From assembly GCF_002854065.1 (NCBI RefSeq), contig NZ_CP024151.1: a stretch of DNA of 64,000 nucleotides; one strand, given 5' to 3'. Shown in pieces: positions 9,109 through 53,825 of the stretch. The stretch is from Escherichia coli. Its GTDB lineage: Bacteria; Pseudomonadota; Gammaproteobacteria; Enterobacterales; Enterobacteriaceae. The first letter of the stretch is position 1; every line of letters starts with the position of its first letter. The notes under the pieces were generated by a model that was not told the DNA's origin, ran no database searches, and saw only the letters and a program-made list of their open reading frames with translations. The position numbers were made by a program, and so were the translations under genes.

Positions 9109-9805
9109 ATCTGGTCTGAACCAGATGGTTCCTCCATCAAAAGCGATGAGATGAAGATCATTATCAAGAGTTTTGAGGGCTCTCCAAACACGAGTGTATG
9201 AACCTCCACTACAAACTGAAAGCTCTTTAACAGATAAGTTAACTTTGTTCGTATCAGGGATGTAGTGTGCGCACATTACTTGTACGAGGGAAACATAAAA
9301 ACTAACCATCGACGCGCTGATTTTATTTTTACGTTTGCCATGCGCTATTGCAAGAAAACCTCTGATGAAGATCAGATGCTTGAAGGAGTCAAAATGAGCC
9401 CTTTTCTGGAGAAGGCAGCAAAACGGGTGAGGATACTTGCTGGAATCAATGTGAAGATCTGATTCAATCCCACCCGCTATTACTGAATGTGTTTCATGAT
9501 TAGCCACACCATCCTGCACTTACAATGCACAGAAGGAGTGAGCACAGAAAGAAGTCTTGAACTTTTCCGGGCATATAACTATACTCCCCGCATAGCTGAA
9601 TTGTTGGCTATGCGGTTTTATGGGGCCCCGGTAATCTTTCTAGTCGCCAAACTTGAAGAAGATTATCGGGGTTTTCGCTTTTCTGGCTCCTGTAAATCCA
9701 CATCAGAACCAGTTCCCTGCCACCTTACGGCGTGGCCAGCCACAAAATTCCTTAAACGATCAGCAATCTACCACTCACTCCTGAGATAAGCAAGAATGTG
9801 AATAT

Positions 9806-10178: not shown

Positions 10179-10529
10179 TTACGACCGTTTAATGTGATTT
10201 TGATAATGAAATGACTGAAAAGCTGGAAATGCCTTAGCCAGGGTGCCGGCCCCGGGCGGGACCGGCTGTTTCTGGTATATAGGATGTCTGCCCCTGAAAT
10301 ACCTCACACTTCCGGAAAGCGGGGACTTCCGTGCTTCGTAGGCCAGAGTTACCTGCACCACTGTATTTCCTCTGTGAATATTCAGCTCACATAACCGTTC
10401 CCTGAATATCAGTGAAAAACACAACACCATGGCGCACACGGCGAGCAACCCGATAAGGGCATATTTCGTCATAAACTTTGACCTCTCTGCAAAGAAGAGG
10501 CTACAATCAGTAGTGTTAAGGTACTTCAT
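10179..10529 (-). CDS. srnB: SrnB/PndA (Hok-family) toxin locus: mok-like leader in frame with toxin; ORF lacks the expected stop
   Basis: MKYLNTTDCSLFFAERSKF-MTKYALIGLLAVCAMVLCFSLIFRERLCELNIHRGNTVVQVTLAYEARK matches SrnB; reading frame continues 48 codons past ...EARK. Confidence 0.7.
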   Translation of the reverse strand: MKYLNTTDCSLFFAERSKFMTKYALIGLLAVCAMVLCFSLIFRERLCELNIHRGNTVVQVTLAYEARKSPLSGSVRYFRGRHPIYQKQPVPPGAGTLAKAFPAFQSFHYQNHIKRS

Positions 10530-11478
10530 GCAGACCTCACGAGTTAATGGATTAACGAGTGGGGTCTTCGCATTTCTGGTACCTGCGTCTTGCCTGAACC
10601 AGAAAGGCTCAGACACCCGCCGCGATAATACCACATTCCCTGTTGCTGGCTATTACCCCCATTTGCCTGTTTTTGTTACAAAAACGCCGGGAGCGGGGGA
10701 AAACTTACTTTTTCCCGTTTCCGGGGGGGACAACTGAGCATTGCGAACGCGTCAGCTACGATGTTCCGGTGATTGCTGATCAGCCCCTGTTGTATTCATA
10801 AACTAATTAACATTCATTCCGTCTGGTGCATAAATCTGCCCGTGAACATCTGCAGACAATACCGACCATAAAAAAATAAATAATCCCAGTAGAATATATT
10901 TCCTCATATTATTATCCATAACAAATAAATGGCACCTGTACACCTGTATTTCAGGCAATCCTGAATATTGCAGCGCACATTGAATAAGACGTTATTTCGT
11001 GACATTAATCACAAAATATAAAATCGCGACTTAATACGGAAAAAACTCTGTGCTACTCAGAACTGACTGGTCATACTGCCCGACCGGATATTAAAAAAGC
11101 AAATCTCATAAACTCCTTTCAGCCTTCTGACTCCTGGAGTAATGAAGGCTGCTTTTTCGTTACACCCTTCCCCGGCAGCGCCGGTAGCAGTGTTCAGCCC
11201 TTTTTCGGGCAAACTGCTGCCAGTCTGTCCGGGGCGCAACACAGGCAGCCCGTCGCCATCCTTCTGCCGCTTCCATCCAGCGTCCACTGACCTCCAGAAT
11301 AACGGCCCGGCTTCCGGCACGCTGCCAGCGCCAGACCTGACCGTTCCGTGAACTGTTTCTGAATCCATTCATCTTTATCACTCCTCTTTAACCCGTCAGT
11401 ATTATGGTGTTAAATAATCTACTGAATTGGCTTCCTTTCGGGTACGGAAGTTTATTTCCTTTTAAGCCTTATTTCCCT

Positions 11479-12886: not shown

Positions 12887-15800
12887 TCAGTCTCCGCCCA
12901 GGGTTTTCTCTTTCTGCAGGGCACGAACCATATCCCGCTCCATCTGCTGCAGTCGCTCCTGCAGCAGATTTTCCCGGGCAACATCCCGGACCGCTTCCCG
13001 CACCCGTTGTGATTCACGCAGCACACTCTCCGGCAGCGCGGCTTCCCGTTCAGATATGGCAGACCGGTCACGCTCCTGCCCGGCAATCTCCCTGACAGCC
13101 TGCTCTGTTTTGCCATCCGGCAGGTCAGGTTTGTTCTCTGCCATTTTACGGACAATTTCATCCGCACGGCGTTCCGTTTCACGGCGGATGGCCTCTTCAG
13201 CTTGCCGCTGTGCCAGTACCTCTGCCGTGACCGGTTCGCCATTTCCGGCTCCCGGCTGAACGCTGTTGTCCGGGATATCCCCCCACACGCGACCACCGGT
13301 GATGGTACCGGGATTCCACGGACGACCTTCACCGGCGATTCTTACCACCACACCGCTGTCAGGATTATCACGGGCAATCCGGACACCATCCTGCATATTA
13401 TCAGCCAGCAGGCTCTCTCCGTTACGGCTGCCCTGCAGGGCCACGAACTGCGCATCCCCGCTGCCTTTCACCCGGCCTTCACCACTGAAGCCCCGCAGCC
13501 CGTTTCCGTCATCCGTGGTCAGCGGATTCAGCCAGATACCGGCGGACTTGCCGTTACGGTCAAAAGCCGGCAGTGCCACATACGGCTGCGGATATTTGCG
13601 CCCGGGTGCAATAAACCGTGCAGGATTGTCTCCCCCGGCAAGTCCCGCCTGACGGAGAACGGCACGGCCGGCCGCCACGTCCCGCAGCTCCCGCGCCGTA
13701 CTGAACAGCCGCTCTGCATTCATGACCTCCCGGTCCGATTTCGGCTCAAGCACATCGTGGGCAGTTCCTTTCTGTACGGCATTGTTAATGGCATCCGTCC
13801 AGCCCTGACGGTTATCGGTATACACCTGCACATGCTGCTTCATACGCGACAGGGCCACGTAGGCTGACTCAAAGCCGGCCATCTGTTTCCGGCTGCCTTC
13901 CGTACCTTCAAGCGCGATGGCAAAGGTTTCACTTGCCCCCTGCGCACCGTGGGCGGTGATGGCATAGGCCAGGTCAATATGTTGCTCTGCCCGCTCCTGA
14001 CCGGGGCGAATCACCCGGGTCTGCTGTCCGTCCGACAGCGTGACACTGTCACCGGAAACCGCTGTCACCGTCCAGACGCTGTTGGCCACATAACCGCGCT
14101 CCCGGTCACTCTTCGTGAAGCGCATCCGGTCACCGGTTCCCACCCGGATGGTGTCCGGGGTGTACAGTGTGACGCCTTCAGCCACCGCCTCCCGGGGCGA
14201 AATCAGCCGCGTGTTACCTTCAGCATCCTGCAGGGTTATCAGCCCGTCATCCCTGCTGATACCGGCAATCCGGTGATACACATTATCCACCAGGGCAAGT
14301 GCGTCCCGATGTGTCTCCCAGGTGGAGAGACGACGCAGCTCCCCGTCGCGTATATTCGCTGTGTTCAGGACAGGCACCATGACCTGCTCTTTTCCCAGCT
14401 CACCGGCCTTTTCCCGTGCATCATGAATCATGCTGTTCAGCACGCGCCGGTCCTCATTCAGGTGCGTGACAATCAGCGTCTGCTCCCGTGCTTCCGGTGT
14501 TCTGCCGGTATAGTCGCGGACAATGGCTTCATACAGTGTCATGGGGACATCCGGGAAAGCCTCGCCTTTCAGCATCGCCTTCTGCTGCGCTTCTGCCAGT
14601 TTCGCTTCCTGGCTGTGACTGAACTCCATCACGGAGTGCTCCGGTGCCCATGCGCCCTCCAGACGTGGCACCTGAGACGGTTTCACACTCTCAAGCCCGG
14701 ATAGTGCCCTTTCCACATCCCGGTTAATCAGGTTGTATACCGCCTCCCGCAGTTCCGGCGTCTGACGCACAATCTCCTTCATGATGGCCACATCGGCAGC
14801 ACTGCGCGTCTGCTGGAGACGGAAAGGCTGACCGGGCGCGATGGCCTGCAGCTGGTCCGTGTCACCACTGGCCACGGCACGACCGCCACCGGCCGCAATC
14901 AGGGCGTATGCCCGTGCCATGTCGGTATTGCCCACCATTGAGCTCTCATCGAGCAGGAACAGCGTGTTGCTGAAATCCGGCGTTTCTCCGCTGCGCTGCT
15001 GCAGCTGCGTGTCATGCAGAAAAGACGCCAATGTCTGCGCATCCACGCCGGCGCTGCGCATCTCCCCGACCGCACGGTGTGTGGGACCCAGCCCAACGAC
15101 ACGGGGACGCTCACTCTCCGGCAGCATGTTCACGGCTGACATCACCGCCCGGAACTGTGTGGTCTTACCCACACCGGCATAGCCCTGCACCACCGTGAAG
15201 CGGTCGGACGTTTCCAGTATCATGCGGGTGGCGGCGCGCTGTCCTGATGTCAGTTTCTCCATGAGTTCGCCAGGTACTCTCTCCATCAGCGGCGTGACCG
15301 CCTCCTTACCTTCGAGAATATGGCGAAGAATGCTCTTTTCTGCCTCATACGACGCACGGGAAACCAGCAGGCCTGTGCCATAGTCTTTTGCCACATCCAC
15401 ATACAGTAAATCACCCCGTTTTATCTGCGCATCGATTTCCCCTCCCAGTTCAGTAAAACTGGTTCCTTCTGCAGCAAACGACTTCGCCTCTGTCAGCAGG
15501 TCCACCATGCTGAAGGCCAGGTTTTTACTTTCCAGCACAGGAAGGGCCAGATGAATGGCCTGCTGTGCCGGCGTGTGAAGCCCGGCTTTCTGCAGACTGA
15601 TAGCGGTTTCCAGCAATGTCTCACCGGCACGCGCCTTTATCTGCTCAGAAACCACCGTAAAGGAGGGATGGCGGGCAAGTTTTTCCGCAGTACGGGTTTC
15701 ATCCAGTGAGGAATACAGCCGGACATCACGACCGCTGCGGGCCAGACCGTTCAGGGTGGCGTTGTCCATTGCCATCTGTGTGACGGAGGCAAAAACCTTC

Positions 15801-21825: not shown

Positions 21826-24647
21826 AATGGCCCCTTCAATCGTTCTTTCTTATCATCCACCATCTGTTTTAACGCATCTTCAGACGGTGTTGGCATTAAT
21901 TTCTGTCGTTTATTTTCTTCATTATATCTGTTGTTTTGTTGAATTTCTTCCTGTTTGTGATTATTTTTTAACTCTGAATATTGTCTGTCTACAATATTTT
22001 CTTCGCCATGAATACTATTCTGAGTATCTCCGATATTCCCTTTATATTCTGTGACCATATTATCAACCTGATGTTTTACATCATTACGGATATTACTGTC
22101 CTGCGTTCTTTGATCAATAATGGCCTGATGCCCCTGATGGTCAGCAATAATATCCTGGCTGCCACCACCCGAAGGTACGCTCTCCATTCCTTTACCAATA
22201 TCCCCACGGGATTCACGCCAGGCATTATCAACACCAGGCTGCACCTGTTCCTGAACAAAAGACCATGCCATCGCCCGACGGCGTTCTGCAATCTCCGGTG
22301 AACTGGTGTTTGTCAGAATAGCTTCGGCATCCTGCGGTGCGTGTTTCATCACATACTGTGCAAACTGTTGCGACAAATCTTCGCTCATCTGCCCACTCAT
22401 GCTTTCAGTACGGGATGCCATTTCAGCATATTCATGGCTGCGGGTCATATTCGTCGTGTACTGGTCGTAACTCTGTTTCGCTGAGTTCAGGGCTGCAGAC
22501 AACTGGTCCACGCGGGAATCGGCATTATTGTCAGTATGGCTGCCGGATTCACTGACTTTGCGACTGGTAAAGTAATCGCTGGCCTCTTTAAAGTCCTTAC
22601 TGGCTTTAGCATCGATATCATGGCGAGCATCATGGGTAGCCCTGCTGCCACTACTTGCTGAATGTGAGTCATCATCCGTTGCATCCAGGCTCCCCTTAAA
22701 TCCACCTCTGATGCCTACCCCACCACCAACACCAAGAATTTTAGGTTTAACCCCCCATTCAGCATGAGCATCAGCATACATTCCACCAGATAGCCTGGTA
22801 CTTGTTGATGCCAGTTCCTGAGTCGCCTGCTCATTACTGATATTATGCGCCTTCGCATAGCTTTCCACTGCACTGCGCATACGGCTGGCCATCATGGAGT
22901 CCTGAGCACTCATCGTGCTGTCAGCACCACCGGTGACAGAATCACTGCTCCCCCGGTTAGAACCAAACTGACTGAGCGTGTTCCAGGCACTGGCAATACT
23001 GCTGCTGAACCCATGCAGGGCACTTTCTGCTCTGTTCGATGCTTCCCGGGCCATTTCCTGTTGTGCCGCCGCAATCTGACGCGTTGCATTGATGCCGACC
23101 GGTAACCGGGACATCGCTCCGCTTGCATCCATCACCATATTACCGTCACGGGTCTGTGTGGCGGTTGCGCCACTGCCGGTCTGGTACATCATCTGACCAA
23201 ACGACGTGGTGCTGTTGGTGCTCCAGCTGAAGCCGTTAACATTCTCCGTCTGCATGTTGCCGTAGGAGTAATTACCGTCAACCACACTGCCTGCTGCACT
23301 GGCGGTCGGGCTGATAGCAGAGGAAGCGAAATGGCTGTACACACTGGAAAATCCTGCCCCGAGCCCCCTGACCATCATCCAGGATAATGGCGGGATCATC
23401 ATGGAAAGATACCCGGCAGTGGAAGCCAGATCGGAGTATTTCAGCTGTATCTGTGAAATTTCCGAGAGCACCACCGGTGCACCATTCTGCTTTGCATAAA
23501 ATGTCATGGCGCTGTTCAGAATGGCGTACAACATTGGCCATGACTGCAACCACATCAGGGCAAACACATAGCCTTTCAGGACGGACAGCGTCAGTTTGTT
23601 GAAGACAGCCGCCAGTACCAGGAGCGGGAAAATACCGATGGCGATCCCCGTCAGGATGGTCTGCGTCATGGGCAGTGTCCGCATCGCCACATGACCGATG
23701 GAGACATGTGCCAGACGTTGCTTCTCCATCGATGATGTGGTGGCCAGATTCACCAGGCTGGCCGAATCACCATTACGTGCGGCATAACTGGTGATCCCCT
23801 CCTTCAGCGCATTGATGGTGACATTCTGGCGGATGATCTGGCTGGCTGATTTACTTGAGCCATAGAAGTAACTGTAACTGTCGCCAATCAGCGTACTGAA
23901 CAACAGGTTCGGATCAGGGCGTCCACCAAATAGCTGCTGGGCATAATAATGCCATGTTTTTCCGCCACTCTGTGTGTCCAGATTCAGCTTGTCTTTCAGC
24001 GAAACCGACGCGTCCTTACAGGTCACGAAATTATTATTGCTGTCATAAACGCCCCGCAGCGGACTGGGGCGGGAAAAAATCAGCGTGTAAGGATCAGCGG
24101 AGGCCATCAGTTCCTCCAGCGTGTATTTGTGGTTCAGGTAAATATCCCCCATCACGCAGTTCTGCACATAATCCTGGAAAAGATTGGCGATTTCCGGATT
24201 ACGGGACAAAAAGTCGGTGCTTTTTGATACCAGTTCTGCGCCAAACAGCATCCCCGTTTTGCTGTAGGTGACACTGTCCGGTTGCGTGAAGATCATCTCG
24301 TAACTGGCCACCATTGCATGCCCGATACGGGTCGTCAGTGAAAGTGGCATCGCCAGTCCGACCGGCACATTATCCACCCGGTGAACTTTGACCAGGTCAC
24401 TGTTATCAATAATCTGCACCGATGTGCGGACATTAACCAGCAGGCTGATAAGCACAAACACGGCCACCCAGCCCAGCAAATCCATCACGTTGTGCCGCTG
24501 TACCCACATTACGGCCACCGCGAGAACAGACAATGTGAGCGCAATTTTTTCAATGGAATCCCACGTCCGGGTCCCCATAAAGGCGGCAATGGCATTCAGG
24601 TTATTCCGCAACCACTCACCACCGGCAATCACATAAACTTCATTCAC
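21822..24647 (-). CDS. traG: TraG mating pair stabilization / pilus assembly
   Basis: 941 aa MNEVYVIAGGEWLRNNLNAIAAFMGTRTW...; GTG start overlapping traH stop. Confidence 0.95.
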   Translation of the reverse strand: MNEVYVIAGGEWLRNNLNAIAAFMGTRTWDSIEKIALTLSVLAVAVMWVQRHNVMDLLGWVAVFVLISLLVNVRTSVQIIDNSDLVKVHRVDNVPVGLAMPLSLTTRIGHAMVASYEMIFTQPDSVTYSKTGMLFGAELVSKSTDFLSRNPEIANLFQDYVQNCVMGDIYLNHKYTLEELMASADPYTLIFSRPSPLRGVYDSNNNFVTCKDASVSLKDKLNLDTQSGGKTWHYYAQQLFGGRPDPNLLFSTLIGDSYSYFYGSSKSASQIIRQNVTINALKEGITSYAARNGDSASLVNLATTSSMEKQRLAHVSIGHVAMRTLPMTQTILTGIAIGIFPLLVLAAVFNKLTLSVLKGYVFALMWLQSWPMLYAILNSAMTFYAKQNGAPVVLSEISQIQLKYSDLASTAGYLSMMIPPLSWMMVRGLGAGFSSVYSHFASSAISPTASAAGSVVDGNYSYGNMQTENVNGFSWSTNSTTSFGQMMYQTGSGATATQTRDGNMVMDASGAMSRLPVGINATRQIAAAQQEMAREASNRAESALHGFSSSIASAWNTLSQFGSNRGSSDSVTGGADSTMSAQDSMMASRMRSAVESYAKAHNISNEQATQELASTSTRLSGGMYADAHAEWGVKPKILGVGGGVGIRGGFKGSLDATDDDSHSASSGSRATHDARHDIDAKASKDFKEASDYFTSRKVSESGSHTDNNADSRVDQLSAALNSAKQSYDQYTTNMTRSHEYAEMASRTESMSGQMSEDLSQQFAQYVMKHAPQDAEAILTNTSSPEIAERRRAMAWSFVQEQVQPGVDNAWRESRGDIGKGMESVPSGGGSQDIIADHQGHQAIIDQRTQDSNIRNDVKHQVDNMVTEYKGNIGDTQNSIHGEENIVDRQYSELKNNHKQEEIQQNNRYNEENKRQKLMPTPSEDALKQMVDDKKERLKGPL

Positions 24648-41394: not shown

Positions 41395-42081
41395 TTACTT
41401 AACGCTATAAAATTCACGAATTATATTTAATAGCAAATCTATTTTCCCTTTATAGATACATGACACTCTGAATAAATCAAAGTGTTCAAAAAATTCTTTT
41501 ATTTTCCGTTTAACTGGTTTAATTCGATCCTCAGATGCTCTGTCTGTAATACCCAATTCTCTGGCAATTGTTGCATGACCAACACCCAGCATATAAAAAG
41601 AGAAAACAAGCAATGTCCCGGGGGAAAGATCATTCCATATCGTTAATTTATCAGAAGTATTTGTATTACTTCCACTCTGACTTAACGCAAAAAATGGATA
41701 ATCAGGAAACGGATTAATTTGCCATAAAACAACAGATTCGTCATTATAAAAAGAAACATTCTCCATCCTTATCTGATAGATTTCGCCATGAAAATTAAAA
41801 CGACGACAAAATGCAGAGCCATGTCCAAGAGCCTGGCATTCCAATTCAAGTGATGAAAGAAAAATTTCAACCTGCAGACGTATATAACTCTCTCCGGATA
41901 AGGGTTTATCTTCTCTGGAAAAGAGTTCAATAAAAGCCCCATTGGCATAAAGGATTTTCCGGTTTTTGTTACGGACACAAACCGGAACGGGAGAATTTCT
42001 GTAGATATTCTGAACGTTAAGGATGTACTTATTTACAGATTGACTGTTAAGTGGCCTTTCTCTACGATCCAGCGCACACAT
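41395..42081 (-). CDS. traJ: TraJ transcriptional activator of the tra operon
   Basis: Position between traY and traM; start taken at internal ATG ([13 protein letters not shown]...) preceded by GGAGG; 228 aa. Confidence 0.8.
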
Positions 42082-42152
42082 AGGAACCTCCGTTAAGGAT
42101 TCTATGGACAGTCGATGCAGGGAGTTCAGACCTCCCTGCATCGGCGATTTTC
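42072..42152 (+). ncRNA. finP: FinP antisense RNA (approximate bounds)
   Basis: Antisense to traJ leader/RBS; hairpin GATGCAGGGAG-N6-CTCCCTGCATC followed by GCGATTTT on the plus strand. Confidence 0.5.
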
Positions 42153-42271
42153 AGTTTCAATTTTTAACGTGGCATTAACCACGTAATTAATATACTAATT
42201 ATCTGACGTATTGTCATCTTTTTGAATCATAAAAATTCTTATATTTGAACCAACTCAAACTTCATTTTCAT

Positions 42272-45765: not shown

Positions 45766-46024
45766 AATAATCACAGGGAAGGTGATGTGATTTCTGACAG
45801 GCCATAACCAGAGAAGGCGGGGGAAAAGAACGGGCGCCGCAGGCGCGCGTTCATCCCCGTTCCTGAAGGGAAACGACCTTCCTGAAGTCAGGTTGTTCAT
45901 GCCCGTACAACATCAGCAAGGAGAAAGGGGCTACCGGCGAACCAGCAGCCCCTTTATAAAGGCGCTTCAGTAGTCAGACCAGCATCAGTCCTGAAAAGGC
46001 GGGCCTGCGCCCGCCTCCAGGTTG

Positions 46025-46183
46025 CTACTTACCGGATTCGTAAGCCATGAAAGCCGCCACCTCCCTGTGTCCGTCTCTGTAACGAATCTCGCACAGCGAT
46101 TTTCGTGTCAGATAAGTGAATATCAACAGTGTGAGACACACGATCAACACACACCAGACAAGGGAACTTCGTGGTAGTTTCAT
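46025..46183 (-). CDS. hok: Hok-family toxin (Hok/FlmA-like), intact
   Basis: [52 protein letters not shown]; 3' UTR GC-rich fold-back region follows. Confidence 0.85.
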
Positions 46184-46241
46184 GGCCTTCTTCTCCTTGC
46201 GCAAAGCGCGGTAAGAGGCTATCCTGATGTGGACTAGACAT
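46029..46241 (-). CDS. mok: Mok/FlmC-like overlapping reading frame
   Basis: 70-codon ORF overlapping hok in the +1 frame. Confidence 0.6.
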
Positions 46242-46462
46242 AGGGATGCCTCGTGGTGGTTAATGAAAATTAACTTACTACGGGGCTATCTTCTTTCTGT
46301 CACACAACACGGCAACAAACCACCTTCACGTCATGAGGCAGAAAGCCTCAAGCGCCGGGCACATCATAGCCCATATACCTGCACGCTGACCACACTCACT
46401 TTCCCTGAAAATAATCCGCTCATTCAGACCGTTCACGGGAAATCCGTGTGATTGTTGCCGCA

Positions 46463-53354: not shown

Positions 53355-53585
53355 TCAGTTAAAAGCGCGTTTCAGTTCGAGTGTGCGGAGCACCTGCCCG
53401 AAGGCCGTGTTTTTCATGGCGGGGATGTGTACACCACGCCCCCGGTGAAAACTCCGGGCAATGTGTCGCCCGAAGGCTTTCAGCACGGGGTCAATTTCCG
53501 GCGCGGGGATGTCTTCGCGTCTGAAACGGGGATGACGGCGGGGCTTTACAGCCGCTGCGGAAGGTGAAACAATACTTACTGTCAT
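53355..53585 (-). CDS. Hypothetical small basic protein (76 aa)
   Basis: ATG with AAGGAG RBS, downstream of repeat copy 3. Confidence 0.45.
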   Translation of the reverse strand: MTVSIVSPSAAAVKPRRHPRFRREDIPAPEIDPVLKAFGRHIARSFHRGRGVHIPAMKNTAFGQVLRTLELKRAFN

Positions 53586-53825
53586 AAATGAAACTCCTTA
53601 TGACAAATTGGTTAACAATGCCGTCAAAATTGGTTGTGCAATTCTTACGGCGTGGATTAAGCAGGTCCCTGACCTGCTTTTTTCATATCTGCGTCTGACG
53701 TTCTACGGTGTTTTCCTCCTTCTGTTCCTGCGTTCTCATTACCTGCCAGCCGGATGACTGACAGAACAAATAAATGCATATTGCCGGAGCCTGAAATAAA
53801 TCCTGATTTTTAAAGAACATCACCC

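Follow-up and report, generated by a model that had tools for sequence, protein, structure and literature searches.

A 24-bp deletion between direct repeats at srnB of an F-like plasmid: a probable natural loss-of-function allele

The 64,000-nt stretch of Escherichia coli DNA analysed here (contig NZ_CP024151.1, hereafter the window) carries a gene for a small Hok-type toxin whose reading frame does not end where the toxin is expected to end. The long frame could encode a toxin variant that still works, it could be an error of the assembly, or it could be what is left of a toxin gene that has been disabled. Which of these does the locus represent?

The srnB locus and its extended reading frame

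The locus is srnB-srnC of F-like plasmids, by descent a type I toxin-antitoxin system of the hok/sok family. Judged from annotated relatives, which are F-like conjugative plasmids, it is flanked by finO and by copB/tap/repA of the IncFII/FIC replicon, and srnB of plasmid F occupies the same position between finO and copB/repA (IncFII/FIC). The F srnB DNA aligned with the window locus end to end. The promoter, the leader ORF, the antisense promoter, the tac/fbi pair and the downstream hairpin of F srnB are all present in the window as well. Compared with F, the window lacks 24 bp (the TAA stop and the 5' arm of the post-stop hairpin), carries one amino acid replacement (T15M), and has a G.U in place of one G-C of the tac/fbi duplex.

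An earlier note, made from the letters of this DNA alone, had described an intact toxin sequence after which the frame runs on for 48 codons. This description was confirmed by the minus-strand ORF at 10179..10529 (351 nt, 116 aa plus stop), which is nested in a maximal ORF of 151 aa on the same strand (10179..10634). An in-frame leader ORF, MKYLNTTDCSLFFAERSKF (10473..10529, minus strand, 19 codons), provides the start equivalent to that of mok. It is followed by the SrnB toxin CDS, MTKYALIGLLAVCAMVLCFSLIFRERLCELNIHRGNTVVQVTLAYEARK (10326..10472, minus strand), which was delimited by translation and by alignment with F and has 49 codons (MTKY...EARK). The 68-aa form that starts at the leader corresponds to Protein SrnB (SRNB_ECOLI) in the protein collection. 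The Pfam family HOK_GEF (PF01848) matched residues 23-64 of the 116-aa ORF with 29.5 bits, against a cut-off of 22.

The window toxin is identical to F SrnB at 48 of 49 residues, the exception being T15M (codon 10428-10430). T15M was ruled out as a result of inactivation, since it occurs together with a normal stop in 79 contigs. Replacement of Hok T18, the equivalent of SrnB residue 15, by alanine did not abolish toxicity (10.1101/2025.08.07.668861).

The read-through tail (SPLSGS...HIKRS, 48 codons, 10182..10325, minus strand) is translated 3' UTR. It contains 4 R, 3 K and 3 H but no D or E, and is basic as had been described. Alignment with F and with canonical alleles showed that the tail crosses fbi, so the frame does enter the 3' fold-back region, and that it spans the downstream hairpin as well. 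The first in-frame stop is the TAA at 10179..10181 (minus strand), which lies 3' of both fbi (by 101 nt) and the downstream hairpin (by 64 nt).

Origin and recurrence of the deletion

An open frame at this position would be ordinary if canonical homologues also lacked the stop. They do not: in F srnB and the other canonical alleles a TAA follows directly after ...EARK. When the nucleotide alignment with F srnB was run, the TAA was missing from the window, and the cause was a 24-bp in-frame deletion. The proposal that a stop codon had been lost, with the toxin altered or inactivated, is thus supported by comparison with F and with the canonical alleles.

Exactly 24 bp are lacking relative to F srnB and to the canonical alleles of E. 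coli, Salmonella and Klebsiella plasmids. In these alleles the sequence is ...GAA GCA CGG AAG TAA GCTGCCGGGCGGGG ACGGAAGT CCCCGCTTTCCGG..., with a copy of the 8-bp repeat ACGGAAGT at either edge of the missing block. In canonical alleles the two copies are 24 bp apart and flank the TAA and the 5' hairpin arm. In the window a sole surviving copy marks the deletion junction (10325..10332, minus strand), as seen in alignments with p1-80206, pZ1323, F and others. Besides the TAA, the lost block held the 5' arm of a GC-rich hairpin (CCGG-G-CGGGGAC GGAA GTCCCCG-CTTT-CCGG), whose 3' arm GTCCCCGCTTTCCGG is left orphaned at 10312..10326 (minus strand) according to folding. The length of the deletion, 24 bp, is divisible by three, and the frame therefore reads on into the 3' UTR. 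The same alignments ruled out a point mutation of the stop codon. The deletion was presumably produced by replication slippage between the two repeat copies.

The earlier note had also considered an assembly indel. The occurrence of the junction was examined with a 42-nt probe, with which megablast cannot seed on undeleted DNA. The probe found 16 PLSDB plasmids. Of these, 10 have the plain junction, and the other 6 have lost a further 2 bp a few bases upstream of it. Among 5426 complete E. coli genomes it found 15, in each case on a plasmid. The carriers came from swine, cattle, humans and wastewater, and their plasmids are ~61 to 159 kb in size. Most of the locus is held by ~2640 plasmid records and by 1913 genomes, and the frequency of the deletion is therefore ~0.6-0.8% of loci (16/~2640 plasmid records; 15/1913 genomes with most of the locus). 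At the protein level, the exact 97-aa product was found on 231 contigs and the 116-aa call on 48 contigs. The cluster of extended proteins has 42 distinct members, Escherichia albertii forms included.

These data bear directly on a sequencing or assembly artefact, that is, a collapsed repeat or an indel at 10325-10332. The lesion does lie between short direct repeats beside a GC-rich hairpin, where polymerases and assemblers can err. However, the identical junction is present in the plasmid records and complete genomes counted above, from different laboratories, hosts and countries; it is carried by four distinct SNP backgrounds, and the exact protein is encoded on hundreds of contigs. An artefact was therefore ruled out, with a probability that we regard as close to nil. 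The allele is real and heritable, and it exists on several sequence backgrounds.

The deletion was found on at least four SNP backgrounds, and for each of them an exact or near-exact undeleted progenitor was identified. With the 24 bp restored, RHB28-E3-C06 showed 0 mismatches in 1066 nt to pZ1323HSL0045-2, and pO103_2 was 100% identical to three canonical plasmids over 623 nt. The restored pE1246_1 had one gap in 714 nt relative to TO60, which already carries the 2-bp frameshift and encodes a 44-aa product. The restored window allele was 99.5% identical to the nearest canonical alleles, and the T15M alleles with a normal stop differed from it at only 10649, 10284 and one other site. Two of these differences distinguish the window clade within known elements: at 10284, C->T in fbi changes a tac/fbi G-C to G.U, and at 10649 a C replaces T in the -35 hexamer of the srnB promoter.

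This distribution points to a recurrent slippage hot spot. A single origin followed by spread through recombination seems less likely: given the nearest flanking SNPs (sense positions 330, 395 and 417), the conversion tracts would all have to be below about 65-86 nt in length. Independent slippage between the 8-bp repeats would be the simpler reading.

Several other small deletions were observed in the same region. In canonical srnB the motif CGGAAGT occurs a third time, directly 3' of the hairpin. With a deletion of 17 bp between copies 2 and 3, the loop and the 3' arm of the post-stop hairpin are lost while the stop is retained, and the 49-aa ORF that remains looks perfect. This 17-bp junction was found in 77 PLSDB records, 66 of them Shigella plasmids. 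Matches of Shigella pINV plasmids to this junction were rejected as intact loci: in pWR501, the one pINV virulence plasmid examined, only a 3' srnB remnant is left, adjoining an IS91 transposase gene. A search for the 41-bp deletion that would join repeat copies 1 and 3 gave no match. Just upstream of the 24-bp junction, a 2-bp deletion (GGCCT--GAAGC) gives a 44-aa product without YEARK (WP_023144756.1). It is known both without the 24-bp deletion (TO60) and with it (pE1246_1); the hot-spot deletion has thus also occurred in an allele whose product had been shortened before. In the pZ1323/RHB28 background, 16 bp are deleted within the downstream GC-rich hairpin (the equivalent of 10245-10266). 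The srnB 3' UTR thus carries several independent small deletions.

Predicted consequences for the srnB message and its protein

The regulatory half of the locus was then compared with canonical alleles. The srnB mRNA promoter was located by a consensus scan at 10625..10652 (minus strand; TAGCCA-16-TGgTATTAT, extended -10), and its sequence is common to the canonical alleles except for the C/T at 10649. The putative mRNA +1 and the tac element GGGTGTCTG lie at 10610..10618 (minus strand), where the Rfam match begins (10618). This match, to the hok-family 5' leader and Sok-target region (Rfam 'sok', RF01794), covers 10460..10618 on the minus strand, is full-length (model 1-157) and scored 94.5 bits (gathering score, 59). 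The 5' leader and leader-ORF region are identical to those of canonical alleles (alignment columns 101-212). On the plus strand, a candidate promoter for SrnC, the equivalent of Sok, was found at 10478..10507 (TTGACC-18-TACAAT, 10/12 consensus match), with its function assigned by homology to sok. The SrnC RNA downstream of it would occupy approximately 10514..10585 (plus strand, ends inferred) and form a long stem-loop of -31.5 kcal/mol. Since promoter, leader and antisense promoter are unchanged, the SrnC antitoxin RNA is probably still made.

The 3' half was examined by RNA folding. The fbi (fold-back inhibition) element GGGGCAGACATCC (10282..10294, minus strand) paired with mRNA nt 1-9 in the MFE folds. 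In the full-length RNA, nt 1-9 (10610-10618) paired with GGGGCAGACA(C/T)CC (10282-10294) in the canonical and window alleles alike, so the tac/fbi closure is predicted to be kept in the window allele. When the RNA was cut just after the post-stop hairpin, the 5' end was predicted to refold into a local hairpin in both alleles. The post-stop hairpin itself differed strongly, with a predicted stability of -24.1 kcal/mol in the canonical allele versus -5.9 kcal/mol for the remnant in the window, and the terminal stem-loop was absent from the fold of the window's predicted truncated RNA. Further downstream, a GC-rich hairpin GCCGGTCCCGCCCGGGGCCGGC (10245..10266, minus strand) formed a 9-bp stem in the folds. 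It probably marks the region of the primary transcript 3' end; the hairpin has no T-run and was not called a terminator by the scan.

Among the features of the family, the window therefore has the Hok/Gef domain, the hok-mRNA leader RNA, an antisense promoter at the level of sequence, and tac/fbi pairing by prediction. Two features were not found: a toxin stop upstream of the processed 3' end, the TAA being deleted, and a GC-rich protected stem-loop just 3' of the stop, the 5' arm of which is deleted.

According to the R1 hok data, a functional locus needs both. In the published model for hok-family mRNAs, the full-length mRNA is closed by pairing of 5' tac with 3' fbi and is not translated; slow 3' trimming removes fbi and leaves a stable truncated mRNA, which refolds, becomes translatable and is the target of the antisense RNA (PMC9841398). 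Applied to the window allele, the full-length srnB mRNA would be held closed by its 5'-3' pairing, and could be translated only after 3'->5' trimming had removed fbi and halted at the post-stop hairpin. With this hairpin gone, stable processed srnB mRNA should not accumulate. The position of the processed srnB 3' end is transferred here from R1 hok, and the remnant hairpin (-5.9 kcal/mol) might give some protection from exonucleases. The only in-frame stop lies 3' of fbi, so an activated RNA without fbi would also be without a stop. Ribosomes on such an RNA would run off its 3' end. In E. coli, ribosome rescue is carried out by the tmRNA and ArfA pathways, and one of these would release them. 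The completed 97- or 116-aa protein would come only from transcripts that read well past the hairpin, and would be a toxin with a 48-residue C-terminal tail of charge +7. The C-terminus of Hok-type toxins probably faces the periplasm, and a +7 tail would be unfavourable there. The net effect would be that the locus no longer causes post-segregational killing and probably still makes SrnC.

Laboratory mutants of R1 hok provide a precedent. Saturation mutagenesis of R1 hok by FASTBAC-Seq selected for loss of toxicity, and six stop-codon substitutions, with a protein 17 aa longer, were recovered as suppressors (PMC9841398). Consistently, an 8-aa C-terminal FLAG tag on Hok abolished toxicity (PMC9841398). 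[quoted passage not shown] We mapped the R1 numbering on the hok gene of the window (+1 = 46356, TAG = +330-332). On this numbering, G345 and C358 belong to the GGCGGGC/GCCCGCC hairpin that directly follows the hok stop, at the same position as the srnB hairpin halved by the deletion. The two suppressor classes, stop loss with C-terminal extension and disruption of the terminal stem-loop, are thus both present in the natural srnB allele, and because one deletion hits both the stop and the hairpin, they were combined in a single event. The R1 suppressors are single-nucleotide substitutions selected without Sok, whereas the srnB allele is one 24-bp deletion in a paralog, carried by wild plasmids with the antisense gene intact. 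The sensitivity of SrnB to C-terminal extension is extrapolated from Hok, with which it shares similarity at the family level only. In the 3' UTR of the R1-type hok of the window (45974-46027), the next in-frame stop after the TAG is a TGA at +381-383, beyond the terminal hairpin of the truncated mRNA (G343-C358); the published R1 hok stop-loss suppressors would therefore probably also be translated as non-stop messages.

Could the extended protein of 97 or 116 aa nevertheless be a functional variant of the toxin, with the locus still mediating post-segregational killing? Its Hok/Gef domain is complete, RefSeq annotates a Hok/Gef family protein, and the regulatory 5' half is intact. In several backgrounds the extended frame also reaches the same TAA without interruption, and the allele persists in many isolates. 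However, F and a Klebsiella plasmid, in which this stretch is untranslated 3' UTR, have the frame just as open as far as that TAA; its openness is therefore incidental and is not evidence of selection. The codon differences in the tail between backgrounds were mostly non-synonymous, with synonymous:non-synonymous ratios of 3:5, 2:4 and 3:7. In other carriers the tail is frameshifted or shortened, as in a 100-aa form of E. albertii, an 82-aa form, and the 44-aa form with the extra 2-bp deletion. In addition, Hok loses its toxicity when extended C-terminally by 8 or 17 aa, and the active hok mRNA is lost when the terminal stem is damaged (PMC9841398). The stop of the extended frame also lies beyond both fbi and the downstream hairpin. 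We therefore consider a functional extended toxin quite improbable.

The tail was likewise rejected as a new protein domain, since it had no Pfam match at E<=1, its substitutions were mostly non-synonymous, and it is frameshifted in other carriers. Rather than encoding a new protein, the long ORF most likely extends a disabled toxin gene into its own 3' UTR. Taken with the mRNA predictions and the R1 precedent, our results make it likely that this is a natural loss-of-function srnB allele, dead in its toxin and retaining its antitoxin, which arose by the 24-bp repeat-mediated deletion. The persistence of the allele in an established plasmid lineage fits neutrality and does not prove loss of function.

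Selection, annotation and the other maintenance loci

If the toxin is dead while SrnC is still produced, the allele might have been selected as an anti-addiction module that neutralises the srnB mRNA of competing or co-resident F-like plasmids, with the triple CGGAAGT repeat serving as a mutational off-switch. The SrnC promoter and its target region are identical to those of canonical alleles, the same deletion recurs on at least four backgrounds, and the 17-bp deletion, also repeat-mediated, affects the opposite arm of the post-stop hairpin; all three would fit such a role. However, a slippage hot spot predicts recurrence without any selection. The toxin of pE1246_1 had already been truncated by the 2-bp deletion, which argues for mutation pressure and not for selection for inactivation, and the allele is rare among the loci surveyed. 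Selection of this kind is accordingly unlikely in our view. We would give similarly little weight to the broader proposal that the three (A)CGGAAGT repeats act as a recurrent off-switch whose alleles are favoured for freeing plasmid or host from srnB addiction and for protecting against related competitor plasmids. Loss of function through mutation at a repeat hot spot is the reading that we prefer.

The case is otherwise ordinary toxin-antitoxin decay in one of several redundant maintenance systems on an F-like plasmid. In loci of the hok family, mutational decay that spares parts of the locus is common. Degenerate hok loci of the E. coli chromosome were reportedly described by Pedersen and Gerdes in 1999, and the srnB locus of the window resembles them in that parts of the locus have persisted. 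Those chromosomal loci are said to have been inactivated mainly by IS elements, point mutations and rearrangements; in contrast, the window srnB carries a small repeat-mediated deletion and resides on a conjugative plasmid. A paper describing the 24-bp srnB deletion allele was not found in our literature search.

The same DNA is annotated inconsistently in the RefSeq records NZ_CP096835.1, NZ_CP045999.1 and NZ_AP038982.1, whose entries vary between a Hok/Gef family protein of 116 aa, a hypothetical protein of 83 aa with its start at an internal Met, and a Hok/Gef protein of 97 aa. The gene table of NZ_CP055056.1 (PLSDB copy, which omits pseudogenes) lists no gene at the locus. The allele illustrates that a hok-family locus can be inactivated by lesions outside the coding sequence or at its edge. 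The 17-bp sister deletion spares the 49-aa ORF completely, and counts of Hok ORFs will therefore overestimate the number of functional addiction systems. Our finding can help annotation and estimates of the number of functional hok-family loci, and the occurrence of the same two lesion classes in wild plasmids gives natural support to the saturation map of R1 hok.

Other maintenance functions are retained on the plasmid, among them an intact hok/mok/sok of the leading region. This R1-type copy had been called intact in the earlier note, and we found the same: the 52-aa Hok (within the ORF 46025-46204, minus strand) has its own stop and post-stop hairpin, and Mok (46029-46241, minus strand) is intact as well. 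In closely related plasmids a RelE/ParE-CopG pair adjoins repA. Rfam matches at the gathering score were obtained for the CopA antisense RNA of the IncFII replicon (9592-9680), AS-pc02 (11080-11263), AS-traI (15232-15308), AS-traG (23843-23928), FinP with the traJ 5' UTR (42075-42184) and AS-pc01 (53580-53682), as expected of an F-like plasmid. In pPM4-5-103k, a close relative with the same srnB deletion, IS150 is inserted in mok of the leading-region hok. Both hok-family loci thus look disabled in that plasmid, whereas the hok copy of the window (46025-46356) is intact.
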